A stretch of DNA of 14,424 nucleotides from Promethearchaeota archaeon (GCA_016839705.1 JAEOTR010000002.1:1-14424); one strand, 5' to 3'. Shown: positions 1 to 12,518, counted from the stretch's first letter. Notes: generated from the letters alone by a model not told the origin. Translations and numbers: made by a program.

Positions 1-116
1 CTCGCCTTTTTTAGAGAGAAATATTCCCCCGGCTTCGCGTTATCGTACGCATTTCTAACCATTTCAGAGATCGCTTCTACTTTTCTTTTATGTATTGCTA
101 GTTTTTCTTCGCTCAT
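1..116 (-). CDS. N-terminal fragment of a gene running off the left edge; probable partner subunit of the DUF2229 protein (CoA-activase/dehydratase-like)
   Basis: ATG at 116 gives an open frame to the window edge: MSEEKLAIHKRKVEAISEMVRNAYDNAKPGEYFSLKKA. It starts 17 nt after the stop of the co-oriented 134..1189 gene. The product is inferred from context only. Confidence 0.6.
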   Translation of the reverse strand, partial: MSEEKLAIHKRKVEAISEMVRNAYDNAKPGEYFSLKKA

Positions 117-133
117 GTCAAACACAGAATTTC

Positions 134-1189
134 CTAGGCTTTTATTGTTTCTTTATTTTTTGAATCTATAGCCAATTTCTTTTTCTTTCTTCGCGCCATT
201 TCTACAAAAGCTTCGATACGCGTTATCATGCCTGCCTCTCCAGAATGTTCATCCATGGTAATCTCTAAGAAAGGGAGTCCAACAACTTTCATATCACGCA
301 TGATCAGTTCCGAAATTAAACTATCAGGACCACATGCAAAACTTATAAGAAAAATTACTCCATCAATTTCTTTACGTCCTTTAGTCAGGAAATAACGAAT
401 TGCCGCCATTATTTCCTCTTCATGTTTCCAGTAGTTTCTAAGCCGCTTACTTATAATTACTGGCGCTTTGAAGATTGATTCGGGTAAATTCTCTATTGTT
501 AGAACCTCAACTCCCTGATCCACTAATTTCTTTTGAAAATCCAGGTTTATAAAGGTATCAAATATATTATAGGCATGACCTAAAAGCAAAAATTTAAGGT
601 CTCCTTTCTTTTTTCTTTTTGGTAGGGTGAAAGGTCTATTATTTTCAACCAGTCTTAAAGCGTGATTTACTGGAGCCCCATCTCTTAAAAATTTATGATA
701 AGCATCAAAATATTTTTGTGCTTCTCTATAAGCATTCAGAGATTGATTTTGAGTTCTACCCAATTCTTTCCCTAATTCTATAGCGGATGTAGCAATAGGA
801 AATTCCTTTACGTTTACTTCGAAATTTAGAATTTTAGGAACTGCTGGTAAAATCTTAATAATATCTGGAAGCGATAAAAATTTAGGACAGAAATACGATT
901 CTTTTACTTCTGCTACATATCTAGGTACAAAGACATAATCCAAATCTGGATGTTCTCTTATTAATTTTAACACCTGCCCATAATAAATCTTCACTGGTAT
1001 ACAAAGTTCCCCAAATCCATGAGTAACACCCTCTTCTACAATTTTCTTGTTGGTTGGGGGGCTTAAAACAATTTGAACCCTTAATTCATCAAGTAATTTT
1101 TTCCAAAAAGGATAATATCTGTAAAAATGAAGTGCTCTTGGAATTCCAACTTTAATATTTTTACTACTGAGCTCTTCTCTTGGTTCCAT
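134..1189 (-). CDS. Acyl-CoA dehydratase activase-related protein (DUF2229 plus HGD-D-like C-terminus), homologous to the reductase module of PlsA/Ger
   Basis: Family motifs KVGIPRAL..Y.YYPFW, LSPPTNK, ELCIPVKIYYG, FVPR, YFCPKFLSLPD, LLGHAYN, SFACGPDS and DEHSGEAGMITRIEAF; three motif cysteines; no ASKHA ATPase domain. Confidence 0.85.
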   Translation of the reverse strand: MEPREELSSKNIKVGIPRALHFYRYYPFWKKLLDELRVQIVLSPPTNKKIVEEGVTHGFGELCIPVKIYYGQVLKLIREHPDLDYVFVPRYVAEVKESYFCPKFLSLPDIIKILPAVPKILNFEVNVKEFPIATSAIELGKELGRTQNQSLNAYREAQKYFDAYHKFLRDGAPVNHALRLVENNRPFTLPKRKKKGDLKFLLLGHAYNIFDTFINLDFQKKLVDQGVEVLTIENLPESIFKAPVIISKRLRNYWKHEEEIMAAIRYFLTKGRKEIDGVIFLISFACGPDSLISELIMRDMKVVGLPFLEITMDEHSGEAGMITRIEAFVEMARRKKKKLAIDSKNKETIKA

Positions 1190-1198
1190 CTAGAAAAA

Positions 1199-1204
1199 TC
1201 CTCC
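1199..1204 (-). promoter_or_regulatory. Shine-Dalgarno-like GGAGGA for the DUF2229 gene
   Basis: TCCTCC on + (GGAGGA on -), 9 nt upstream of the ATG at 1189. Confidence 0.55.
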
Positions 1205-1327
1205 ATAAAAAATCATTTTTCAAGTATAATCTTTATAATGGATGAAATGATTTAAAGTCATATTATGAAGACCTATTCCTTTTTTCGAATCTAAAAATTC
1301 ATAAATATTGGATAAATTTTTGATTTA

Positions 1328-2950
1328 ATGGACGATTTTTTTCTTGGATTGGATTGTTCAACTCAGAGTTTTACTGTTATTATTATTAATTTTAATTCAA
1401 GAAGAGTAATTTATCGAAATAGTCTAAATTTTGACAAATCTTTACCCCAATATAACACCAACGATGGGATTATAACCTTTGAAGATGAAAAAGTAGTACA
1501 TTCACATCCTCTTATGTGGGTTGAAGGTTTAGAATTGTTGTTTCAGCAAATAATGGATGAAGGGATTCCAGTTTCTAATATAAAGGCGATTTCAGGCTCA
1601 GGACAACAACATGGAACAGTATATTTAAATAATTTATTTGAAAAATCTCTTAAAGAATTAGATTACTCAAAATCTTTAGTCTCCCAATTAAAAAGCTCAT
1701 TTTCTCGTCTAACAAGCCCAATCTGGATGGATTCAAGCACCACAAGAGAATGTAATGAAATTCGCAGAAAATTAGGAGGAATGAAACCAACTATAGAAAT
1801 GTTGGGTTCAAATACTTTTGAGCGATTCTCTGGTCCTCAAATCCGAAAATTTCATCTAGAAGAACCAGAGAATTATGATAAAACTTCAAAAATTCATCTT
1901 GTTAGTTCTTTTTTAGCCTCTCTTTTGTTAGGTACACACGCGCCTATCGATCACGGGGATGGTGCAGGTATGAATCTGATGAATATAAAAACTAAAGAAT
2001 GGGATGCACGAGCTTTAAATGCAACAGCTCCTAACCTAGAAGAAAAACTACCAAATCTTTCAAAATCTTATGAAATCATTGGAAAAATATCCTCATATTT
2101 TGTAGAAAAATATGGATTTAATCCTGACACAGAACTCGTAGCTTGGTCGGGGGATAACCCTAATAGTCTGATTGGCGTTGGTTTAATTAATAAGGGAAAA
2201 GTTGGGATAAGTCTTGGAACAAGTGATACTTATTTTGGTTATTTAGAAGAATTATACCTTGATTATAATGGTGAAGGTCATGTTTTCGGAGCACCGACTG
2301 GTGATTACATGAGCCTTATTTGCTTTAAAAACGGCTCTTTAGCAAGAGAAAAAATAAAAGATGAATTTGATCTTAATTGGAAAGAATTTTCTAAAGTTTT
2401 GAGAAAATCCCCTCCAGGAAATTATGGAAAAATCATGCTTCCCTACTTTTTTCCAGAAATTGTACCTATAGTATTAGATCCACATGTTTATCGATTTGGA
2501 TTAGATAAAGATGACTTAGAAGGAAACATACGAGGGATAATAGAGAGCCAATTCTTATCAATGCGAGTACACTCAGAATGGATCGAAGAGAGCCCAGAAG
2601 AAATCTATGCAACAGGAGGTGCTTCCATGAACAAAGACATGCTCCAGATACTAGCAAATGTTTTTAACACAAGAGTAAGACAATTTGAAATTACTGATTC
2701 AGCAACCCTAGGAGCAGCATTAAGATCAGCTAAGTCATTTTATGATCCTAGGAATCGAGAAAAGAACTGGAATGACATTGTAGGTAAATTCATAGATATT
2801 CAACAATGTACCATGATTAAACCACAAAAGAAATATAAGGACTTATATGACGATTTACTTAAAGTGTATCAGAAATGTGAGGATTTTATTCTTAATAAAG
2901 GCGAAAATCCCGAAAAAATTCGCAAAAATTTTATCAAAAAGTATTTTTAG
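1328..2950 (+). CDS. xylB: Xylulokinase, FGGY family, eukaryote (XYLB/XKS1)-type
   Basis: Motifs LGLDCSTQS, ISGSGQQHGTVY, SPIWMDSST, ERFSGPQIRK, LVSSFLASL, GMNL, GDNP, SLGTSDT, GHVF, CFKNGSLARE and ATGGAS, which match eukaryote-type D-xylulose kinases. Confidence 0.9.
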   Translation: MDDFFLGLDCSTQSFTVIIINFNSRRVIYRNSLNFDKSLPQYNTNDGIITFEDEKVVHSHPLMWVEGLELLFQQIMDEGIPVSNIKAISGSGQQHGTVYLNNLFEKSLKELDYSKSLVSQLKSSFSRLTSPIWMDSSTTRECNEIRRKLGGMKPTIEMLGSNTFERFSGPQIRKFHLEEPENYDKTSKIHLVSSFLASLLLGTHAPIDHGDGAGMNLMNIKTKEWDARALNATAPNLEEKLPNLSKSYEIIGKISSYFVEKYGFNPDTELVAWSGDNPNSLIGVGLINKGKVGISLGTSDTYFGYLEELYLDYNGEGHVFGAPTGDYMSLICFKNGSLAREKIKDEFDLNWKEFSKVLRKSPPGNYGKIMLPYFFPEIVPIVLDPHVYRFGLDKDDLEGNIRGIIESQFLSMRVHSEWIEESPEEIYATGGASMNKDMLQILANVFNTRVRQFEITDSATLGAALRSAKSFYDPRNREKNWNDIVGKFIDIQQCTMIKPQKKYKDLYDDLLKVYQKCEDFILNKGENPEKIRKNFIKKYF

Positions 2951-3004
2951 GCTTTTGAATGTATTGGGAATTATCTTAAAAGTATCCCCTCCTTAAATAG
3001 AAGG

Positions 3005-3014
3005 CTTTTTTTTG
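3005..3014 (+). terminator. Oligo-T terminator candidate for xylB
   Basis: Run of 8 T in the gap between convergent xylB and rpe, preceded by a weak CCTT..AAGG stem; archaeal intrinsic terminators are T-tracts. Confidence 0.45.
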
Positions 3015-3665
3015 TTATTCATCTTTATCAGAATATTTCATTGACTGGATAGCATAATCAGGATCATTTGCCTTTAATATTGCACTTGCGCTACTTAGTA
3101 TATCAGAATGGATCAATTTGGAATTTTCAGGATTTATCCCCCCGTCAACATCAATAAGAAATTTCAAATTATTTTCAAGTCTATAAGCCAATAATGAGTT
3201 AACTTTCTCGACTATTTCAAGAATAAATTTTTGACCTGACCAACCAGGATGTACTGACATTATTAAAACCAAATCAATATAATTTAAGAAAGGGAAGAGA
3301 TTGTCTAATTGTGTATTAGGATTTATTGCTAAACCAATTTTTTTATTCTTTCTTTTAACCTCATTTATAATATCATTTTTATCCCCTTCGGATTCATAAT
3401 GGAACACGAAAAAATCGATGTCGTCAATAACTTTCTCGATGTATTCAAGTGGTTTAAGAACCATCAAATGAGCTATAATCGGCGTGTCATATTTTGCCTT
3501 GAGATCCTTCAAGACATTTAAATTGATATTCACATTATTAACAAATTTGCCATCCATTATATCAACATGTATAAAGTCAAGTCCCTTTAAATCTTCAATG
3601 ATCTTGGGGTTAAAATCGTCTTTAGCATGTATTGAAACAGCGATCTTTTTCATTTTAGGTTTCAC
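3015..3665 (-). CDS. rpe: Ribulose-phosphate 3-epimerase (GTG start at 3665; alternative ATG at 3653)
   Basis: HVDIMDGKFV, HLM, FHYE, GLAINPNT, MSVHPGWSGQKF and DVDGGIN; the four metal ligands (H, D, H, D) are present. Confidence 0.93.
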   Translation of the reverse strand: MKPKMKKIAVSIHAKDDFNPKIIEDLKGLDFIHVDIMDGKFVNNVNINLNVLKDLKAKYDTPIIAHLMVLKPLEYIEKVIDDIDFFVFHYESEGDKNDIINEVKRKNKKIGLAINPNTQLDNLFPFLNYIDLVLIMSVHPGWSGQKFILEIVEKVNSLLAYRLENNLKFLIDVDGGINPENSKLIHSDILSSASAILKANDPDYAIQSMKYSDKDE

Positions 3666-3689
3666 AATTACAATATTGGAAGATTAGGA

Positions 3690-3697
3690 TTATAAAA
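3690..3697 (-). promoter_or_regulatory. Archaeal TATA box candidate for rpe
   Basis: TTTTATAA on the - strand at -25 to -32 from the GTG at 3665, the spacing expected for a leaderless transcript. Confidence 0.45.
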
Positions 3698-3749
3698 GAA
3701 AAAAATTGATTATTCCCTAATGGGTGAATTTTCTCTATTATTATATATT

Positions 3750-5426
3750 TCACGCATCAGGAATATTGTATAAAAGTAAATCTTTGATTTGAGCCATCAT
3801 ATTGTTAGTTAATCTTTTAAGTTCATCATAATCCGGCATTGGCTTATCCCAGTATTGTTGATGCTCCATAAACGGTGAACCTGCCTTTAGAATCTGACCT
3901 TTATAGAAACTTAGCATTTTAGCTTTCTTAGGATATGTTTTCTCGGTTCCGGTGATTCCAATAGGAATGATGGGTGCTTTAGTCTGAATTGCTAATCGCA
4001 TCGGACCCGTATGTCCTTCTAATAATTGACCATTCCCTGTGTTAGTAGTACCCTCTGGATAAGTAATAACTACCTTTCCCTGCTCAAGAAGTCCTCTGGC
4101 ATAAAGAAATGAATCTACATCGTGCATTCCTCGCTTTAATGGAAATGCGTGATGATTTCTAACCCACGCATTTACGAGTGGAATTTTAAAAAGTGATTGC
4201 TTTGCCATTTGGTAAGCAACACGTCTTGGTGGGTGATGGATTATGCATGCTGCTAGTATAAGTACATCCCATTCAGAATTGTGGCTTGGACATATAAGAG
4301 CAGGACCTGTTGCGGGGATATTTTTTCCAAAATCGATGACTTTATACGGCATCATGAGATCAGACCAATTACAAACTAATTCTCCTGAGAACGCATGTAT
4401 TGGCCGTTGAATTATCTCTCGCGCGTTAAATTCCTCTAAACTTCTTAAAAGAGCATACCAAGAATCATCAATAAGTTTAACAACACCTATTGCTTGATCT
4501 TTTAAATATTTCATGATATTAAATTTGGATTCTTTTGGAACTTCTTCAGGTGAACCGATTGAAAGCTCTTCATTCTCTTCTCTCCCATAAATACCCTCAC
4601 GTAATTCCCAAATGGTATTCCTTAGTTCATCAGTTAAACTTCTAATATCATTATAAGAAACAGAATTTATATCATAATCATCATAAAAAATAGGATCAGC
4701 AACTCGTACTTTGACCTGGGTTGGTTTCATTACTAGATTTCCTTTAGGGAGTGCGTTGCGTGAGCCAATAACTGCCATAGGGACAATGGGTACCTGCATT
4801 TCAATTGCTAGTCTTACTGCTCCAGTCTTAAATTCACCCAAAGTTCCATCCTTAGACCGTGTACCCTCTGGAAATATTCCTACCCATTCTCCACCACGGA
4901 TAATCTCTTTTGCCTTTTCCCACCCTCGTTCAGGATTTTCGCGATCAACTTTAAATGCTCCCAGATTATTAAAGAGTGTTTTCACAATCGGTGTCTTGAA
5001 ATTGTCTAATTTACTCATATAACGAATTCGACGATGACAAGCTGCTCCATAAAAGAAAGGATCGATGTGGGACTCGTGATTACCAACCAAGATGCCTGGT
5101 CCCCACTCCGGGAACATGTTCCCTTTTGGATATTCCGCTTTAAAGTTCCATAACGTTCGAGCAGCCCACTTTATATAAATGTATGCTGCCCACCATTGAA
5201 GTCGTCCTTCTATTTTCTTTATGTCTAATCGTTTGATTATATATCGATACAAGTCATTCAATGGATCAATAGGATTGAATTTCATAAATTTATACGTCCA
5301 ATCCTGATGACGTTTTTCATATTTTAGTTCTTCCTGCAATTTTTCTTCTGTGGATTTCTGTTGCTCCATTTCTTCGGCTAACTGATAACCTTTTTTTTCG
5401 GTTTTTTCAAGTACTACAATAATCAC
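3750..5426 (-). CDS. plsC: Tandem two-domain lysophospholipid/glycerolipid acyltransferase (PlsC/AGPAT family); start may be ATG 5369
   Basis: Domain 1 has NHESHID (HX4D, 5061-5078), AFKVDR, FPEGTRS (4854-4874) and VPIVP. Domain 2 has SHNSEWD (HX4D, 4266-4283), AFPLKR, YPEGTTN (4041-4061) and APIIP. Confidence 0.9.
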   Translation of the reverse strand: MIIVVLEKTEKKGYQLAEEMEQQKSTEEKLQEELKYEKRHQDWTYKFMKFNPIDPLNDLYRYIIKRLDIKKIEGRLQWWAAYIYIKWAARTLWNFKAEYPKGNMFPEWGPGILVGNHESHIDPFFYGAACHRRIRYMSKLDNFKTPIVKTLFNNLGAFKVDRENPERGWEKAKEIIRGGEWVGIFPEGTRSKDGTLGEFKTGAVRLAIEMQVPIVPMAVIGSRNALPKGNLVMKPTQVKVRVADPIFYDDYDINSVSYNDIRSLTDELRNTIWELREGIYGREENEELSIGSPEEVPKESKFNIMKYLKDQAIGVVKLIDDSWYALLRSLEEFNAREIIQRPIHAFSGELVCNWSDLMMPYKVIDFGKNIPATGPALICPSHNSEWDVLILAACIIHHPPRRVAYQMAKQSLFKIPLVNAWVRNHHAFPLKRGMHDVDSFLYARGLLEQGKVVITYPEGTTNTGNGQLLEGHTGPMRLAIQTKAPIIPIGITGTEKTYPKKAKMLSFYKGQILKAGSPFMEHQQYWDKPMPDYDELKRLTNNMMAQIKDLLLYNIPDA

Positions 5427-5528
5427 CCAAAATTATTAAAAAAAGCATTAAATCTTAATAAAAATACAATTTTTTCAGCTGAATTGTTTTACTAAAATAC
5501 CCTTTGATATAAAAAATTATTGATCAGT

Positions 5529-5585
5529 GTAATACTCAAAAAAGTATGATCTTTTTAATCATTTTGAAGGGTAAGTAATACTCAA
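5529..5585. repeat. 11-bp direct repeat GTAATACTCAA (5529-5539 and 5575-5585)
   Basis: Two exact copies 46 nt apart in the intergenic region between the thioesterase and acyltransferase genes. Confidence 0.6.
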
Positions 5586-5594
5586 TACTTTCTT

Positions 5595-6038
5595 TTATTT
5601 TAGGAAATATTCAAGGAAGGTTATCATATTCATTAATTGATTACTATTTAAGTCTAAAGCAAATCTCACGGCCTCTACTTTAGCTAATAATGAGTCATCT
5701 GATTCTTTAAATAATTCGTGGTTGAAGGTGATTGACGTTATCCCTATTTTTTTAACACTCGTTTTAACAATCACATAATCACCAAATTTAGCAGATCCTT
5801 CATATGTAATATTAACATGTTTTACACCACATGCAATCCCATCATGGATCATTTCCTCTATGGTATGATTATTTTTTAAAGAATTCATGAAACTAACAAA
5901 TCCATCATCGAAATATACCATATAGTTCTTAAAGTGGACTACACCCATCGCATCTGTATCATTAAATCTTACTTTTACTCTTGTTGTGTCTTTAGCATCC
6001 AACAATTTCTGTTTTAGGGCTAATTCAGCTTTATTCAT
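5595..6038 (-). CDS. Acyl-CoA thioesterase, hotdog fold (4HBT/YbgC/FadM family)
   Basis: VRFNDTDAMGVVHFKNYMVYFDDG signature, and ITY...AKFGD...V.T....IG.TSITF; 147 aa. Confidence 0.88.
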   Translation of the reverse strand: MNKAELALKQKLLDAKDTTRVKVRFNDTDAMGVVHFKNYMVYFDDGFVSFMNSLKNNHTIEEMIHDGIACGVKHVNITYEGSAKFGDYVIVKTSVKKIGITSITFNHELFKESDDSLLAKVEAVRFALDLNSNQLMNMITFLEYFLK

Positions 6039-6095: not shown

Positions 6096-8513
6096 TTATT
6101 TTTTCTTACGCACTTTTTTGACTATCAGACTAGAAACAAGGACAATCATCAACGACATAAAGAATAAGTCATATCCCGGGATTTCACCACCCAGCTCTTC
6201 CAACGAAATGTAAGCCATTGCTGATATTATGCACTTATTAAACATGTATGGTTCCATTTCTATAATTATCGTATTCGTGGCATTTAGGTAAGTTATATTA
6301 TCAGCATAAAATTCAGGAGGTGCTAAACTCCAATCAAGTGCTCCACTCATATTGAATGCATAGAAAAAGAAAACCATATTATCTAAATCTATTGATGGTG
6401 GAAGTACAATTGTCATTGTAATATTACCGCTTAAAAGTGTATAATTTTCATATAATTGGTCAAAGAAGGCTATTGGTGTACCGGCAGGTAATGAAACATT
6501 TACAGGATTCATAGGGAAGTAATTATAGATTAACGCTGCGCCTGTACCTGTAGCACCCACATCAACATCTACACTTACAGTTAAACCGGGGGTTGGAAAA
6601 TCCGTATTCGCCGTAAAGGAATTTGGGCCAATATTCAATGGTTTGTAAAATTTGGGATAGATGGACATATAATTCCATTCAGATCCAGGACCTGGGGTAT
6701 TACTCCACCCGTACATCATAGTAACTCTACCAGAAGTCTCATCAAAATGAAAATTTAGTTCTCTATTCAATGTAGTATTTTTAAGGACTACATGACCGCT
6801 GTCATATGAGATATCATCGTAAATATCACCAAAGAAATCAAAAATTATACTAAGCTCGGAGCTAGTTGTTCCTTCAGGCATTAATAGGGGTGCTCCGTGC
6901 TGAAATGACATAGGTGATATCGGCCAGTATATGTTTGCAATTACAAATTTAGTAACTGTATCAGGAATCCAAGATTGTGTGTCAACATCCCAAATTTCAA
7001 TTAAAGTTTCTATATAGGAGAAAAATTGAAATTCGGGTTGACCTGATGGTAAAGTTAATGACATTCCCATCATATTATAAAATTCAAACATCATGCTCAT
7101 ATTAACGTAATATGCATCAATTGCTACTACAGTAGCTTTAATATCACGGAATTCTTCACCATTATCTTTAAAGTAAATAATATCATCGACATCTACAGAC
7201 CAATCTACTAAAGTTTGCGCCTTTATTTCATAGAAGAAAACATTACCGCCTTGTAACATCAGATTATGCTGAACAATCCCGGTTGTTTTATCTATAATAG
7301 TTTTTACAAAGTCATTTCCTGTTGAATCTATAGCTAAGCTTTCAAAATGTCCATTTTCAGAATAGTATACCTCGTCAAAGGGAGCTCCCCATACACCCAG
7401 TGTATCATTATTCCACATGAATAAGAAATCATCCTTTTCAGCACTGATAGGATATAGAAAGTTAAATAGATTTGGTCCCGAATCAAAGTATTGGGGGTAA
7501 AAATTATTTGCATATCCTATAGGAATGCCCCATTCCACTTGAAAATATTCTGTCCCATCCCATAAGTATAGGTCTGCTAATACAACTTGAAATCCCATCT
7601 GAATCGGGTCTTCAGAGAATCCGTTTTTATGTTTTTCAACCATTACTTCAGTTATATCCGTAATATTTACCAATACTTCCATTGCTTCTCCCTCCCAATT
7701 AGACCCATCATACATGTTATAGGTGAAAGTGTCTCCAATATTAACTCCCCACTGAACTTCATCTATAGTATCATAGTCAAAGACCTGTGTCATTGTAGCG
7801 TTCACTAATATAGGACCTTCTCCCATTTCGACCTTTAAGTAGGCAGATCCTGTATTCAATGTTCCATTAGCATAATAAATTCCCTCAGAGTAAAAATGCT
7901 CTGTGTTATTGTAGAAAAAAATTCTATTTGAACTAGAAGTTGATTCATAATAATCAAAAGCATTAAAAGCACCAAATTGAGACATTGGATAGTAAAAAGT
8001 TTCATTTATTATCTCATCCAAAACGTCAACTTCTAAACCTTTTGAACCATTTATAGGTAGTAAAAAGGGCATACCGCCTTGCCCTGCTCTGATTCTATGA
8101 TTGATTGGATCCGAATTATTGTATCCAAATAGGGCAATTTCTGAAGATGGACCAAAAGCTACTAATTCCTTTGAAGTTACATTATAGTAATATTGGGTTG
8201 TATTTACTTGAGAACAATTGGTTGTTCCCAACCAATCAACTGTAACATTTTCTATAGAAGTAATATTGTAGATCCAGATAACTTTGAACTGACTAGTTAT
8301 TTCACCTGTTGATGCGTTTGCTAAAGTAAATTCACCTTCGAAATACATATGATCTCCTACATCAACATCCCAGTGCCATCCGTTGTCGGGATGCGGTTCC
8401 GGAATATACGGTCCACCTCTTACATTTATAATTAATGAACCAAGAATCATTACCGTTGGGAAAAGGATAAGGAAAATCAATAAAATACGTTTATCTCTTT
8501 TTAAAAACTTCAT
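6096..8513 (-). CDS. Secreted, C-terminally anchored surface glycoprotein with a Loki-CTERM-like sorting signal and three internal repeats
   Basis: Basic plus hydrophobic N-terminal signal (MKFLKRDKRILLIFLILFPTVMILGSLII); C-terminal IPGYDLFFMSLMIVLVSSLIVKKVRKKK; about 22 N-X-S/T sequons by hand count; recurring W-x-V-[DN]-[VI]-[GD]-D motif. Confidence 0.8.
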   Translation of the reverse strand: MKFLKRDKRILLIFLILFPTVMILGSLIINVRGGPYIPEPHPDNGWHWDVDVGDHMYFEGEFTLANASTGEITSQFKVIWIYNITSIENVTVDWLGTTNCSQVNTTQYYYNVTSKELVAFGPSSEIALFGYNNSDPINHRIRAGQGGMPFLLPINGSKGLEVDVLDEIINETFYYPMSQFGAFNAFDYYESTSSSNRIFFYNNTEHFYSEGIYYANGTLNTGSAYLKVEMGEGPILVNATMTQVFDYDTIDEVQWGVNIGDTFTYNMYDGSNWEGEAMEVLVNITDITEVMVEKHKNGFSEDPIQMGFQVVLADLYLWDGTEYFQVEWGIPIGYANNFYPQYFDSGPNLFNFLYPISAEKDDFLFMWNNDTLGVWGAPFDEVYYSENGHFESLAIDSTGNDFVKTIIDKTTGIVQHNLMLQGGNVFFYEIKAQTLVDWSVDVDDIIYFKDNGEEFRDIKATVVAIDAYYVNMSMMFEFYNMMGMSLTLPSGQPEFQFFSYIETLIEIWDVDTQSWIPDTVTKFVIANIYWPISPMSFQHGAPLLMPEGTTSSELSIIFDFFGDIYDDISYDSGHVVLKNTTLNRELNFHFDETSGRVTMMYGWSNTPGPGSEWNYMSIYPKFYKPLNIGPNSFTANTDFPTPGLTVSVDVDVGATGTGAALIYNYFPMNPVNVSLPAGTPIAFFDQLYENYTLLSGNITMTIVLPPSIDLDNMVFFFYAFNMSGALDWSLAPPEFYADNITYLNATNTIIIEMEPYMFNKCIISAMAYISLEELGGEIPGYDLFFMSLMIVLVSSLIVKKVRKKK

Positions 8514-9819: not shown

Positions 9820-10548
9820 TTATAACATTTCTAATAATTCTTCTAATGAATTAATTAATAAATCAGGTTCATATCCCAATAAAATTTCTTTTTTACTTAC
9901 TCCGCTTGCTACGCCTATTGTCCATAATCCCGCATCATGTCCGGCGATTATATCGGAGGGCATATCCCCGATCATCAAAAATTCCTCTCTCTTTCGTCTT
10001 TCATATGTTTCTAAAGGTGGTTGAAGTGCTAAAGGATCTGGTTTTTGTACAGGAATTTTATCACTACCATATACTCCTTTAAAATATTTAGCAATATCTT
10101 CATTTTCTAAGTGTTCCATTATTGTTTCTGTCTTATTATGAGATACAATAAATAGATCAAAATCTTTAGCAATTTTTTTTAACAATGATTTTACGCCAGG
10201 TAATAAAGGTGCATCTTTTGAATATTCGAGATATTTTGAAAAAATCTTTACAGCGATTCTTAATTGTTTAAAGTAACTCAATGTATTTAAACTTGTAATG
10301 TGTTTGAATATTTCATAAGACTCAAGTAATATTTTTGGTAAAGGAAATCCTTGAATTGTTTCCAATAGAGCCCCAATTTCCTGAATCGTTGTTTCCATGT
10401 CTACATTAATATTTTGGTCTGCTAAAACTTCTTCAATTGATTTCTCGAGTATTTCCCTTATATCTAGAAGGGTACCATCAAAATCAAAAATTATCCCTTT
10501 AAGAGAATGAGATAAAAGTCGATTGTTTAATTCATTTGCTCTACTCAT
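9820..10548 (-). CDS. HAD-superfamily phosphatase (subfamily IA, phosphoglycolate-phosphatase-like)
   Basis: Motif I FDFDGTL, motif II VSHN, motif III KPDP and motif IV IGDMPSD. Confidence 0.88.
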   Translation of the reverse strand: MSRANELNNRLLSHSLKGIIFDFDGTLLDIREILEKSIEEVLADQNINVDMETTIQEIGALLETIQGFPLPKILLESYEIFKHITSLNTLSYFKQLRIAVKIFSKYLEYSKDAPLLPGVKSLLKKIAKDFDLFIVSHNKTETIMEHLENEDIAKYFKGVYGSDKIPVQKPDPLALQPPLETYERRKREEFLMIGDMPSDIIAGHDAGLWTIGVASGVSKKEILLGYEPDLLINSLEELLEML

Positions 10549-10622: not shown

Positions 10623-11309
10623 TTAAGAAGAATTTTGTCTCAAAGCCCCATATGCTTGAATGGAGTTACATATTAGGAGAGTGTAAATCATAAATTTCTG
10701 GCCAACCACGTAAATTAACAATCCCCCTAATGTGTAGCTATTTGGTGTAAAAAATAGAAAAAGAAAATAGATGCCTAAAATGAAAGCTGAGAATACAAGA
10801 ATAGTTGCATAAAAATTAGGATAATTTTCATTCTTAAATATTACAAAGGAGTATAATATTATACTAAAAAAAACGAGTGAAAAACCAATTACAACAAAAA
10901 AATCATGTAACCTGCCTGTAATATCTGAAGGAGTAAAGGCTATACCGACATAAGAGATTGCTGATATTACGCCTAAAATGGAACCTATATAACTAATCCT
11001 CCTTAAATTTTGATAATTTTTGAATAAGTTTGAGAATGCTACATAAAATGGGATTTGAGTAATACCCCATAGACTCAAAGTGATGGTAAAAAGCACAAAA
11101 GAGGTAATATTTTGAATTCCTGAATGAGCTACAGTTCGACCTAAATCGCTAAAATAATTCTGCCAGAATGTATAACCTGAAGAAAAAGGATCAACATAAG
11201 TTCCTCCTCTATAAAAAATCATAGCAATAGCCGTTAATATAACAAATTGTAAGCAACCAATAATACTTAAAATGTATATTATTTTTCTGGAGCTAAATTT
11301 GGTAAGCAT
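10623..11309 (-). CDS. Integral membrane protein, DUF998-like
   Basis: About six hydrophobic helices; Y.GG....GY.FWQNYFSDLG motif after TM1; His in GRLHDFF. Confidence 0.65.
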   Translation of the reverse strand: MLTKFSSRKIIYILSIIGCLQFVILTAIAMIFYRGGTYVDPFSSGYTFWQNYFSDLGRTVAHSGIQNITSFVLFTITLSLWGITQIPFYVAFSNLFKNYQNLRRISYIGSILGVISAISYVGIAFTPSDITGRLHDFFVVIGFSLVFFSIILYSFVIFKNENYPNFYATILVFSAFILGIYFLFLFFTPNSYTLGGLLIYVVGQKFMIYTLLICNSIQAYGALRQNSS

Positions 11310-11321
11310 TGCTGAAAATCA

Positions 11322-12518
11322 TCACATTTCCTTGAAATTTTTCAGAAAAATTAGATTAAAAAAGAATATTAGAAGTAAAATTATAGATAATGTTATATAG
11401 GCAATATTAACATTTATACCCCCAACTATCCCCAAAATTATCTGGGATATAAAAAAAAAAAGCCCGATGGAACTTTCTAAAATGCTACTATAAATAGATG
11501 TATTTTTTATTATGTTTAGAGTTAAAAATAATTTTGAGGCTGTTCCATATAAAATTCCATAGAAAAATCCAGAGAGCATAAAAAGAACAATGAAGATAAT
11601 ATAAAAATCACTTATAGTAAAAAAGATAAACATAAACGCATAAATCAATAATGTTAGCGATGTAAGAAGCTTTAATTTTTTAAAATTCGCTAAATTAGAT
11701 AAATACATTGCGAGTGATTGTGTTATTGTAGCAAACACCATAAGCAGGTATGTGCTCGAGGGTTGATACCCTAACATTTCAGACTTAATTGGATATAATA
11801 ATGTACCGTTTCCTGATGCAAATGAAAGACCAAGGACTAATAATAAGGGGAGGATAACAGGGATATACAAATTACTCACCTTTAACAATTTTTGATGATC
11901 TTCAAGTCCTTGTATTTCTATCTCAAATTTTTGACCATCCTGATCATCACGAATTGGCTCCTGAAAAAAGAAAATAGCTATGAAAACATTTAAAGCTAAG
12001 AAAATAGGATTGATATAAAACAGAAATCTTAGATCATTAATAAATGATAGAAAGACTGCTCCAAATATTAAACCAAAAACTCCCGCAATTCCCCATGAAA
12101 GGTTGAATCTAGCCAAAAACTTCTGATGATCAATCTCAGCATTATCAGAAATGCTTGCTTGTAGATTTGGGAAAAAAAAACCTAATATAAAACCCTCAAA
12201 CAGTCTTTCAATTAAAAAGATAAGAGGATCTAAAGTAATATAGAATATCAACTCAGCAATTGTAGCTCCAATCATCGCAATAATAACACAGTTTCTTCGA
12301 CCTAATATATCCGATAATTTATTCAAGATTAATGGGGAAATACTATAAGTTATCGTAAGAGCAGTAGATAATATACTAATGAATATTATTTCAACTCCCT
12401 GTTGGAGATAGTATATAGGTGCAGCCAGCATTATTATCGGACTACTGAGTGCAAAAATAAATACTAAGGATAATACTGGCCAAAATCGCCAATGATGTAC
12501 AGCAATTTCTTCGGTCAT
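11322..12518 (-). CDS. MFS transporter
   Basis: 398 aa with about 12 hydrophobic segments in two halves around a hydrophilic loop; motif A-like LSDILGRR; RLFEG in TM4. Confidence 0.85.
   Translation of the reverse strand: MTEEIAVHHWRFWPVLSLVFIFALSSPIIMLAAPIYYLQQGVEIIFISILSTALTITYSISPLILNKLSDILGRRNCVIIAMIGATIAELIFYITLDPLIFLIERLFEGFILGFFFPNLQASISDNAEIDHQKFLARFNLSWGIAGVFGLIFGAVFLSFINDLRFLFYINPIFLALNVFIAIFFFQEPIRDDQDGQKFEIEIQGLEDHQKLLKVSNLYIPVILPLLLVLGLSFASGNGTLLYPIKSEMLGYQPSSTYLLMVFATITQSLAMYLSNLANFKKLKLLTSLTLLIYAFMFIFFTISDFYIIFIVLFMLSGFFYGILYGTASKLFLTLNIIKNTSIYSSILESSIGLFFFISQIILGIVGGINVNIAYITLSIILLLIFFFNLIFLKNFKEM

Follow-up and report, generated by a model that had tools for sequence, protein, structure and literature searches.

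Gene content of the locus

The window analysed here, a stretch of 14,424 nucleotides, is the whole of contig C78 of a Promethearchaeota genome assembly, and the assembly therefore holds nothing to the left of position 1. Next to position 1, the minus strand carries the open 5′ end of a gene (3–125), the first 41 codons of what is probably an 806-residue fusion protein, which start 8 nt past the stop codon of Red1, a stand-alone DUF2229 gene (134–1189, minus strand, 351 aa). Next come a XylB-like FGGY sugar kinase on the plus strand (1328–2950; FGGY_N and FGGY_C domains, TIGR01312 at 215 bits with a cut-off of 380) and, again on the minus strand, rpe for ribulose-phosphate 3-epimerase (3015–3665; PF00834, 148 bits), a tandem PlsC-type, LPAAT-like acyltransferase of 558 residues (3750–5426) and a YbgC/FadM-like 4HBT hotdog acyl-CoA thioesterase of 147 residues (5595–6038), whose 64.1 bits lie just below the NCBIfam cut-off of 68.7. 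Beyond a ROK kinase and a Loki-CTERM surface protein, which with the thioesterase separate it from PlsC, lies a HAD-IA phosphatase (9820–10548, minus strand), the first operon gene in relatives. All four minus-strand genes from which the initial annotation argued, namely the thioesterase, the double-PlsC protein, the DUF2229 gene and the truncated gene, are present. As described there, PlsC is separated from the DUF2229 gene by xylB and rpe, but xylB is read from the plus strand.

In other lineages the full operon comprises HAD, PlsC, Red1, Red2 and a BcrAD activase, and the window plausibly represents the front part of this conserved Lokiarchaeial set. In most relatives the tandem PlsC sits directly upstream of Red1 on the same strand. 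At 61 of 74 loci it ends ~24 nt before Red1, in any case within 60 nt, and at 8 more it is found within 600 nt, so that the synteny between DUF2229 and PlsC genes anticipated for Asgard genomes is indeed strongly conserved. In loci L121, L122 and L127, where the PlsC genes are split or single, the pairing survives at 45–48% identity, and HAD sits just upstream of PlsC in most of 80 related loci, the gap in relatives being 5–100 nt. The thioesterase, by comparison, adjoins PlsC in only 4 of the 80 (L045, L056, L057, L059), and must be regarded as a loose neighbour rather than as the member of the linked locus that it had been taken for. No homolog of the XylB-like kinase was found within 10 kb of Red1 in the 80 loci, and rpe is absent from all of them; the two genes represent a lineage-specific insertion between PlsC and Red1. 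Because xylB is read from the plus strand, no single transcript can span PlsC and the DUF2229 gene here, and with the operon broken in this way Red1 must be transcribed on its own.

The acyltransferase matches PF01553 twice (187.9 bits) and TIGR00530 with 161.8 bits (cut-off 102.95), this LPAAT-type domain exceeding the cut-off in both halves. Across 40 orthologs neither HX4D motif (H117/D122, H382/D387) varies, and the EGT blocks vary little or not at all. Judged by these motifs, both PlsC domains appear catalytically intact, and the protein is predicted to be an LPAAT-type acyltransferase. It holds the only PF01553 domains of the genome, and a search of the protein for hydrophobic segments of the membrane-span type found none. 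Red1 and PlsC are both under strong purifying selection, with dN/dS values of 0.03–0.04 and 0.07–0.08, respectively.

The putative DUF2229 reductase and its partners

Red1 covers positions 1–217 of the 218 in the DUF2229 profile (PF09989, 152.4 bits), and its HGD-D match (PF06050, 29.6 bits) is limited to the last ~60 residues, equivalent to profile positions 282–341 of 342. In the Pfam profile search it showed neither a full-length HGD-D match nor a PF01869 (BcrAD/BadFG activase) domain, and tblastn with Red1 missed all six canonical HGD-D genes that the genome has. The distance from the canonical HgdAB/HadBC dehydratases that had been suggested is borne out by these results. Three cysteines (C63, C101 and C286) are invariant in 69 Red1 sequences and are likely [4Fe-4S] ligands. 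The structure model (pLDDT 92.9) returned HadB/C, DCCP and BzdNO as its best Foldseek matches (probability 1.0, TM-score 0.5–0.56), which points to a HadB/HadC-type fold. Red1 is thus shown to be one predicted catalytic subunit of the benzoyl-CoA-reductase/2-hydroxyacyl-CoA-dehydratase superfamily, in its DUF2229 branch.

A tree places Red1 in a clade of split-subunit DUF2229 proteins, whose bacterial members come from Thermoanaerobacter, Omnitrophota and the locus L123, and have neither a PlsC neighbour nor a known role. The same genome encodes a fused BcrAD-BcrAD-DUF2229 (BBD-type) protein with a 462-residue partner on a second contig, C43 (15957–18914). Its DUF2229 domain is only ~25% identical to Red1 and forms a separate long branch, so that Red1 falls in a different, well supported clade from this protein, which served as the comparison partner and is not itself a validated PlsA/PlsR or Ger. 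The grouping of Red1 with the BBD form typical of validated Ger, as first envisaged, does not hold. The region thus holds two DUF2229 systems besides Red1 and its partners, the BBD-type protein with its 462-residue partner and the cassette described below. In one related locus (L124), all three follow PlsC on one strand within 14 kb. DUF2229 was likewise found in the Thermotoga, Bacteroides and Lactococcus control genomes.

Beyond position 1, another reductase subunit together with a BcrAD activase had been predicted. In relatives this is what is found, with the activase and Red2 directly 3′ of Red1 in at least 12 loci; in this genome, however, the cut gene opens another cassette, and both ancestral partners lie on C43. 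Red2 (C43:772–1956, 394 aa), the paralogous partner of Red1, is intact, and the activase (C43:3–758, ~341 aa, a single BcrAD domain encoded by a separate gene) is intact as far as the contig reaches. The two genes occupy the far end of C43, ~25 kb or more away. Over their full length Red2 and Red1 are paralogous (hhalign of Red2 against the Red1 family, probability 99.9%), and cysteines C49, C79 and C307 of Red2 are invariant. Modelling of the Red1/Red2 complex gave an ipSAE of 0.77, compared with 0.00 for the best of three controls; among solved complexes 58 of 80 reach this value, as do 2 of 110 mismatched pairs, and it may stem from likeness to the solved HadBC or BzdNO complexes. Contacts agree to at least 90% between runs, partner pLDDT is at least 87, and the cysteine motifs are located in the modelled interface.

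As judged by sequence identity, the gene at 3–125 is the start of an 806-residue fusion of a DHCR24-like FAD_binding_4 domain with DUF2229 and HGD-D (Red1′). Its 41 codons in the window match the beginning of the fusion in locus L075 at 100% identity, and there the gene is complete (L075:11820–14240, with FAD_binding_4, DUF2229 and HGD-D), and the encoded N-terminus is identical to those in L021 and L029. The remainder of the gene past these codons is absent from this assembly. The tight linkage that had been noted for the truncated gene stands, but its reading as a plain HGD-D partner has to be replaced by that of a fusion opening a separate cassette.

This cassette spans ~4.8 kb and holds three genes, for the fusion, a second activase (Act′) and a second Red2 (Red2′). 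One boundary lies at about window position 127, and the opposite one corresponds to the right-hand end of C43. There, the last gene of the cassette is directly followed by a degraded, partial second copy of the Red1 3′ end (134–246, minus strand, in the window), with window positions 182–246 matching C43:25606–25670 at 89% identity over 65 nt. Positions 1–127 are 94–100% identical in nucleotide sequence to relatives whose Red1 gene is only 73–79% identical. Because the cassette ends are 94–100% identical and flanking genes ~75% between species, the cassette has probably spread recently. In a further genome (G002), Red1 is truncated after 81 residues beside the cassette. The fusion is known in only three clusters at 90% identity.

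Proposed chemistry and its alternatives

By analogy with PlsA/PlsR and Ger, conversion of ester to ether lipids is in our view the best reading of the Red1, Red2, activase and PlsC set, and we assign it a probability of roughly one half. PlsC would make an O-acyl ester on a glycerol backbone, from which HAD would remove the phosphate. An activase dimer would, driven by ATP, push a low-potential electron into the iron–sulfur centre of Red1/Red2, and this centre would reduce the carbonyl of the PlsC-made ester. Uptake of a second electron and loss of water would then yield either a vinyl or an alkyl ether, by chemistry of the kind that has been proposed for bacterial PlsA/PlsR and demonstrated for Ger. 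The DHCR24-like flavin domain of Red1′ could saturate the vinyl ether. We count in favour of this reading the PlsC synteny, the enzyme class, the PlsC motifs, the precedent of the DUF2229 family and the flavin domain. Against it stand the bacterial members of the split clade, with their lack of a PlsC neighbour, the ~25% identity of Red1 to the BBD D-domain, the insertion that has broken the PlsC–Red1 coupling here, and the genome itself, in which a clear GpsA was looked for and not found. In addition, the published lipidome of a cultured relative contains only archaeal isoprenoid lipids in the account of Imachi 2020 that PMC13400652 relays, and PMC13400652 itself points out that the lipid method used may miss ester lipids.

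The full scheme, in which Lokiarchaeia make fatty-chain ethers from a PlsC/HAD acylglycerol, Red1/Red2/activase convert it to a vinyl ether and the flavin domain of Red1′ is the vinyl-ether saturase, is tentative and rather doubtful. If true, it would mean that close archaeal relatives of eukaryotes possess modular, laterally exchanged equipment for building non-isoprenoid ether membranes. The conserved pairing of acyltransferase and putative reductase offers a testable candidate route to such lipids.

The most serious alternative, unlikely but with real weight, is that Red1, Red2 and the activase act on a CoA thioester (hydroxyacyl-, enoyl- or another acyl-CoA) and that PlsC transfers an unusual chain, with no ester-to-ether step. 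CoA thioesters are the substrates of all solved relatives (HadBC, BzdNO, MbdON), bacterial split systems show no PlsC link, and genes of acyl-CoA metabolism occur nearby: the thioesterase in the window, an acyl-CoA dehydrogenase and an old-yellow-enzyme reductase on C43, and thiolases with a 3-hydroxyacyl-CoA dehydrogenase in locus L020. These neighbours are not conserved, however, whereas PlsC and HAD are, and the genome provides for such chemistry with distinct, canonical HGD-D/BcrAD clusters on contigs C92 and C56. Moreover, PlsA/PlsR and Ger, which were the only DUF2229 enzymes of characterised function in the papers searched, act on O-esters of glycerolipids (PMC13159169, PMC8788747).

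The operon might also make or remodel another acylated molecule, such as an amino lipid, a neutral storage lipid or an archaeal ether lipid that has been acylated to give a chimeric isoprenoid/acyl lipid, which the radical enzyme would tailor without forming an ether. Acyltransferases for lyso-ornithine lipids and others also belong to the PlsC family, and weak NCBIfam matches to them were obtained; the genome encodes a canonical archaeal GGGPS (179 bits) and no clear GpsA; chimeric lipids have in fact been proposed for Lokiarchaeota (PMC6737245). We consider this improbable, as the LPAAT-type TIGR00530 matches in both PlsC halves speak against it and another acceptor has no specific support.

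Very improbable is the view that the linkage in this genome is a relic, the genes having been uncoupled by the insertion of rpe/xylB and of the cassette, and that Red1 has ceased to act together with PlsC. The opposite-strand xylB, the distance to Red2 and the activase at the other end of C43 and the truncated Red1 of G002 would fit such decay, but Red1 and PlsC are intact at dN/dS values of 0.03–0.08, all invariant residues are retained, and Red2 and the activase show no damage within C43.

Finally, the contig is archaeal, from Promethearchaeota/Lokiarchaeia, as the initial annotation had supposed. A bacterial contaminant, for which one could cite the estimated bin contamination of 6.8% and the mostly bacterial PlsC and DUF2229 families, has a vanishingly small chance given the Loki-CTERM sorting signal on the neighbouring 805-residue protein, the 80 of 80 best related loci from Promethearchaeota-type or mis-labelled MAGs (the closed chromosome CP070831 included), a G+C content of 0.323 close to the ~0.31 typical of the other contigs, and Red1 orthologs in 45 of 54 same-family genomes.

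Comparison with known systems

Stand-alone uncharacterised FAD oxidoreductases aside, the fusion's FAD domain has its closest named relative in the delta-24 sterol reductase of the eukaryote Anaeramoeba, an enzyme of the DHCR24/DWF1 type that reduces C=C bonds; identity to it is 57% over the FAD part of the query. The closest solved structures are cytokinin dehydrogenase and DprE1. The domain differs from DHCR24/DWF1 in its fusion to a DUF2229 radical-enzyme domain, and in the two stand-alone FAD relatives checked no DUF2229 neighbour was seen.

With HadBC/HadI, HgdAB/HgdC and BzdNOPQ, the Red system shares the fold, heterodimeric catalytic subunits, Cys-bound clusters and an HgdC-type activase. 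It differs in that sequence similarity is confined to the last ~60 residues of Red1, and that no CoA-metabolism gene is conserved in the Asgard operon. Closer in sequence (38–40% identity) are the bacterial trios annotated as "acyl-CoA dehydratase activase-related protein" in Thermoanaerobacter and Omnitrophota, which likewise have a split Red1, a Red2 and sometimes an activase, an Omnitrophota-type sequence (P0128) being sister to the Asgard clade in the tree. Unlike the Asgard operon, they have no PlsC or HAD neighbour and no known function (PMC13274423).

Ger, known from Thermotoga maritima (Tmari_0479) and Desulfatibacillum alkenivorans (SHJ90043), turns sn-1 esters into saturated alkyl ethers in the absence of oxygen, and a BBD core of two PF01869 domains and PF09989 is common to all alkyl-ether producers (PMC13159169). 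Ger homologs have been reported from Lokiarchaeota and Heimdallarchaeota (PMC13159169), and the general idea of such homologs together with PlsC in Lokiarchaeota is already published (PMC13159169, PMC6737245). The Red system has domain families in common with Ger; however, in Ger a single polypeptide contains the BBD core, whereas Red1 is a D domain only, with no activase domain, and it is the BBD gene on C43 that has the Ger architecture here. By sequence, PlsA and Ger are indistinguishable, and the role of activase-less PlsA homologs has been called unclear (PMC13274423).

PlsA/PlsR is represented by Q8XL48/Q8XL47 of Clostridium perfringens and by single-gene PlsA in Enterococcus and Lactococcus, and is proposed to act through two one-electron reductions of the ester carbonyl followed by dehydration (PMC8788747, PMC12838417). 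The putative system described here is made up of three proteins (Red1 of 351, Red2 of 394 and the single-BcrAD activase of ~341 residues), with the activase outside the DUF2229 polypeptide and Red1 in the separate split-subunit clade, and its operon, in an archaeal host, opens with a HAD phosphatase and an acyltransferase. What it shares with PlsA/PlsR is the DUF2229 reductase domain, a second, paralogous reductase part, ATP-driven activation of the BcrAD/BadFG type, conserved [4Fe-4S] cysteines and anaerobic hosts.

Genes of the window and their order in relatives

The genome behind the window comprises 3.36 Mb in 97 contigs, with ~31% G+C; the window spans one of these contigs, C78, in full. 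The initial annotation's gene list for positions 1-6038 was correct, and each gene was located. On the minus strand lie a hotdog thioesterase of 147 aa (5595-6038), a 558-aa protein with two PlsC-type acyltransferase domains (3750-5426), Rpe (3015-3665) and the 351-aa DUF2229 protein Red1 (134-1189), the last 60 residues of which also match HGD-D. The 5' end of a further minus-strand gene (3-125, 41 codons) begins 8 nt beyond Red1 and runs off the contig edge. The genes of the layout proposed at first stand, with the orientation of xylB corrected: this FGGY/XylB-like kinase (1328-2950) is on the plus strand, opposite to PlsC and Red1. Because it is oppositely oriented between them, co-transcription of the PlsC and DUF2229 genes is impossible in this genome.

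To define the gene order in relatives, the window's proteins were compared by tblastn with 80 related loci, and the distance to PlsC was counted over the 74 with enough upstream DNA. In 61 of these 74, PlsC ends ~24 nt ahead of Red1 on the same strand; the distance is at most 600 nt in eight others and larger in three, and PlsC is missing or inverted in two. A HAD phosphatase usually sits directly ahead of PlsC in the 80 loci. Neither xylB nor rpe was found near Red1 in any of the 80 by tblastn, and the thioesterase adjoins in only four. Judged by this comparison, it is an insertion of rpe and xylB that breaks the PlsC-Red1 operon in this genome.

The order PlsC-Red1 is maintained as PlsC identity drops to 47%, counted over loci that are kin and not independent. 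At 45-48% identity the pairing is kept in three cases: locus L122 and the closed genome G026 carry two separate PlsC genes followed by Red1, its partner subunit Red2 and the activase Act, and locus L121 has a single PlsC, Red1, Act and a 435-aa protein. No PlsC was found beside the bacterial relatives of Red1 in Thermoanaerobacter, an Omnitrophota MAG and locus L123, where Red1 occurs with Red2, with or without Act. Two patterns are seen downstream. In more distant lineages Red1 is directly followed by Red2 (~394 aa) and Act (BcrAD/BadFG, ~341 aa); L071:9992-13548 and L127:6728-10226 are examples of such an unbroken operon. In this genus, a 985-aa protein with two BcrAD domains and one DUF2229 domain (hereafter BBD), together with a 462-aa partner, lies 1-6 kb past Red1.

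The interval between the HAD phosphatase and PlsC is a variable slot. It holds an 805-aa protein in the window (6096-8513), without a Pfam domain and with a C-terminal Loki-CTERM sorting signal near threshold, and large secreted proteins (InhA-like MAM, beta-helix or 916-aa) in relatives. Upstream of HAD-PlsC, four loci (L021, L024, L025 and L027) conserve Steroid_dh (PF02544), an SRD5A/TECR-like membrane C=C reductase, accompanied by a DUF998 membrane protein and an MFS transporter. The latter two are retained in the window (10623-12518); a Steroid_dh gene was not found in it up to the contig end.

Homologs of Red1 form more than 120 clusters at 81-92% identity, the named ones being from Promethearchaeota, and each of the 80 best loci, taken from species-representative genomes and including the closed chromosome CP070831, belongs to an Asgard MAG or to one with an evidently wrong label. 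From these identities and the Loki-CTERM signal on the neighbouring 805-aa protein, we conclude that the contig is archaeal. Of 251 genomes sampled across the phylum, 52 have an ortholog at E <= 1e-60: 45 of 54 in the same family, four of five in a second family of the order, one in another family of the class and one small genome in a distant family, with none in the remaining families sampled. A contig labelled 'Nanopelagicaceae bacterium' (L106, DATKTW010000084.1) carries the entire Asgard operon at 79% identity, and a Red1 that is 78% identical lies at G060:C6:497-1546, in a 1.7-Mb genome of a distant Asgard family; both the contig and the genome are probably mis-binned.

The two PF01553 domains of the 558-aa protein are the only ones in the genome. 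Their HX4D blocks are invariant in both domains across 40 orthologs and the EGT blocks invariant or nearly so, and the protein shows no clear membrane-spanning segment. The genome also encodes the archaeal GGGP synthase; a search of it for GpsA gave no clear candidate, only marginal Rossmann-type matches. Its sole PlsY match (PF02660; G000:C62:14688-15224) lies inside an open frame that, at 411 codons, is roughly double the normal size of PlsY and may represent a fusion.

Red1, Red2 and the remainder of the system

Three cysteines of Red1 (C63, C101 and C286) are invariant in 69 family members. Its AlphaFold model is confident (pLDDT 92.9), and the best structural matches are catalytic subunits of 2-hydroxyisocaproyl-CoA dehydratase, a double-cubane cluster protein and benzoyl-CoA reductases. 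Such matches would suit a CoA thioester as the substrate of Red1, Red2 and Act. The sequence likeness to them is confined to the last ~60 residues, and tblastn with Red1 did not find the canonical HGD-D genes of the genome (on contigs C92 and C56). We consider a CoA-thioester substrate rather unlikely. In the tree, from which validated PlsA, PlsR and Ger sequences are absent, the window's Red1, other Asgard Red1 sequences and the C-terminal domain of the fusion protein described below group together as a clade (SH-aLRT 97). An Omnitrophota-type sequence is sister to this clade (99), and the D-domain of BBD stands apart on a long branch of its own.

The remaining components are encoded on contig C43. 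At its left end lies Red2 (C43:772-1956, minus strand), followed by Act (C43:3-758, minus strand), which is cut at the contig edge. Red2 is a full-length paralog of Red1 (hhalign probability 99.9%) with invariant cysteines of its own. The modelled Red1-Red2 complex scored 0.77; the highest of three controls scored 0.00. Among solved complexes 58 of 80 attained the mark for such scores, as did two of 110 mismatched pairs. Contacts agree to at least 90% between runs, the partner pLDDT is at least 87, and the cysteine motifs lie in the interface. As HadBC-like complexes have already been solved, this model speaks for likeness, not for binding. C43 also carries BBD (C43:15957-18914) and its 462-aa partner (C43:14565-15953). 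The latter has no Pfam or NCBIfam match, reaches an hhalign probability of just 36% with Red2, and yielded a model too poor for a structural search (pLDDT 57.5). Its Atlas look-alikes, clusters named 'activator of 2-hydroxyglutaryl-CoA dehydratase family' (0.92), are a lead only.

A probable fusion cassette at the contig edge

The incomplete gene at 3-125 had been described as a truncated partner of Red1. The tight linkage stands, and the gene is probably an FAD-DUF2229 fusion opening a separate cassette. The 41 residues are identical to the N-terminus of a gene complete in locus L075, which encodes an 806-aa fusion of an FAD_binding_4 flavoprotein with DUF2229/HGD-D, its C-terminal part 41% identical to Red1. 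In L075, genes for another activase (343 aa) and another Red2-like protein (444 aa) come next. C43 ends on the right in an open frame of 102 codons that is cut by the edge, and its product shares 94% identity with the C-terminal 102 residues of this Red2-like protein. From this homology to both cassette ends we infer that the left end of the window and the right end of C43 belong to one cassette of ~4.8 kb. Its middle is absent from the assembly, and no exact k-mer overlap was found between the left end of the window and other contig ends. The short contig C40, with a BcrAD gene, was rejected as the missing neighbour: a membrane-protein gene precedes its BcrAD gene, which is 37% identical to the cassette's activase. 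Selenocysteine at an in-frame TGA of the fusion genes was likewise rejected: this TGA is where the fusion terminates, and it overlaps the start of the activase gene.

The cassette has probably spread recently and is shared among co-occurring species, a reading based on sequence comparison of its ends and flanks, the small number of clusters, the variable insertion site and the contig breaks. Between this genome and L075, L079 and L106, nucleotide identity is 73-79% for Red1 and 94-100% for the cassette ends (window 1-127 and G000:C43:25600-25987), the high-identity stretch being bordered at approximately window position 127 and C43:25671. The fusion forms only three clusters at 90% identity, one with 246 members, and its position varies by genome: immediately past Red1, in the gap between Red1 and Red2, or within Red2. 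The contigs of at least ten genomes of the genus stop inside the cassette, as expected for sequence common to co-occurring species. Locus L124 (G140:C38:74000-90500) carries on one strand, within 14 kb, PlsC, Red1, BBD, the 462-aa protein, the fusion, the cassette's activase and Red2-like genes, and Red2; the Red1-Red2 interval seems to collect DUF2229-type modules.

Past the cassette end on C43 lies a degraded second copy of the Red1 3' end (65 nt). At L079, extra partial copies of the Red1 3' half (~500 nt, 71-74% identical) flank the cassette on either side (L079:1653-2204 and L079:7240-7732). These flanking copies at L079 hint at integration through recombination within Red1-like sequence. 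In L029 of the same genus (G002:C21:60775-62889), Red1 ends after 81 residues, where the first gene of the cassette begins, through a genuine deletion or a chimeric assembly. In L075, a 1041-aa protein with LAGLIDADG homing-endonuclease domains (17034-20159), possibly a host protein with an intein, is encoded immediately past the cassette.

The nearest named relative of the flavin part is a eukaryotic delta-24 sterol reductase (57% identity over the query's FAD part), and the closest solved structures are cytokinin dehydrogenase and DprE1. Neither of two stand-alone FAD relatives examined (P0296 from Sigynarchaeota, P0355 from a deltaproteobacterium) has a DUF2229 neighbour.

Proposed chemistry and known systems

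In the conserved set, the only PlsC-type acyltransferase and a HAD phosphatase are joined to an ATP-activated iron-sulfur DUF2229 enzyme of three subunits. The window contains PlsC and Red1 as well as the opening codons of a second system, carried by the cassette. PlsA/PlsR act on sn-1 esters, which two one-electron reductions and a dehydration turn into vinyl ethers; the products of Ger are alkyl ethers (PMC8788747, PMC13159169). As these are the characterised DUF2229 enzymes in the literature searched, the most economical reading is that Red1, Red2 and Act would reduce a PlsC-made ester to an ether. The C=C-reductase-like flavin domain of the fusion would suit a saturating step. We give ester-to-ether chemistry a probability of about 0.5. 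It is made less certain by a Red1 clade without a characterised member, by the make-up of the tree, by activase-less PlsA homologs without a known role and the indistinguishability of PlsA and Ger by sequence (PMC13274423), and by a cultured relative that showed archaeal lipids only, as cited in PMC13400652. An operon that makes some other acylated product is improbable. That the linkage is a relic in this genome, where xylB and rpe interrupt it, is very improbable next to the PlsC motifs and the Red2 and Act genes found here.

The origin of eukaryotes, with their fatty-acyl lipids, from an archaeal host with isoprenoid ethers is a long-standing puzzle. Lokiarchaeotal PlsC and PlsY have been published (PMC6737245, PMC13400652), as have Ger homologs, the cultured strain included (PMC13159169); in the literature searched we found no description of an operon linking PlsC to such an enzyme, of its division into three subunits, or of its fusion with a flavoprotein. 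Should the function differ, the operon still provides substrate context for the large uncharacterised 'activase-related' DUF2229 family. PlsC and Ger homologs had been reported apart; at this locus, class-wide gene order ties the sole PlsC-type enzyme of the genome to a radical reductase of the PlsA/Ger family that is complete with its three subunits. As many as three of these systems are nested here, and one of them, with a fused flavoprotein resembling C=C reductases, is a cassette that has probably spread recently. The locus also indicates specific lipids to seek in cultured Asgard strains and yields a small set of genes suited to anaerobic expression in E. coli, the approach used for Ger.
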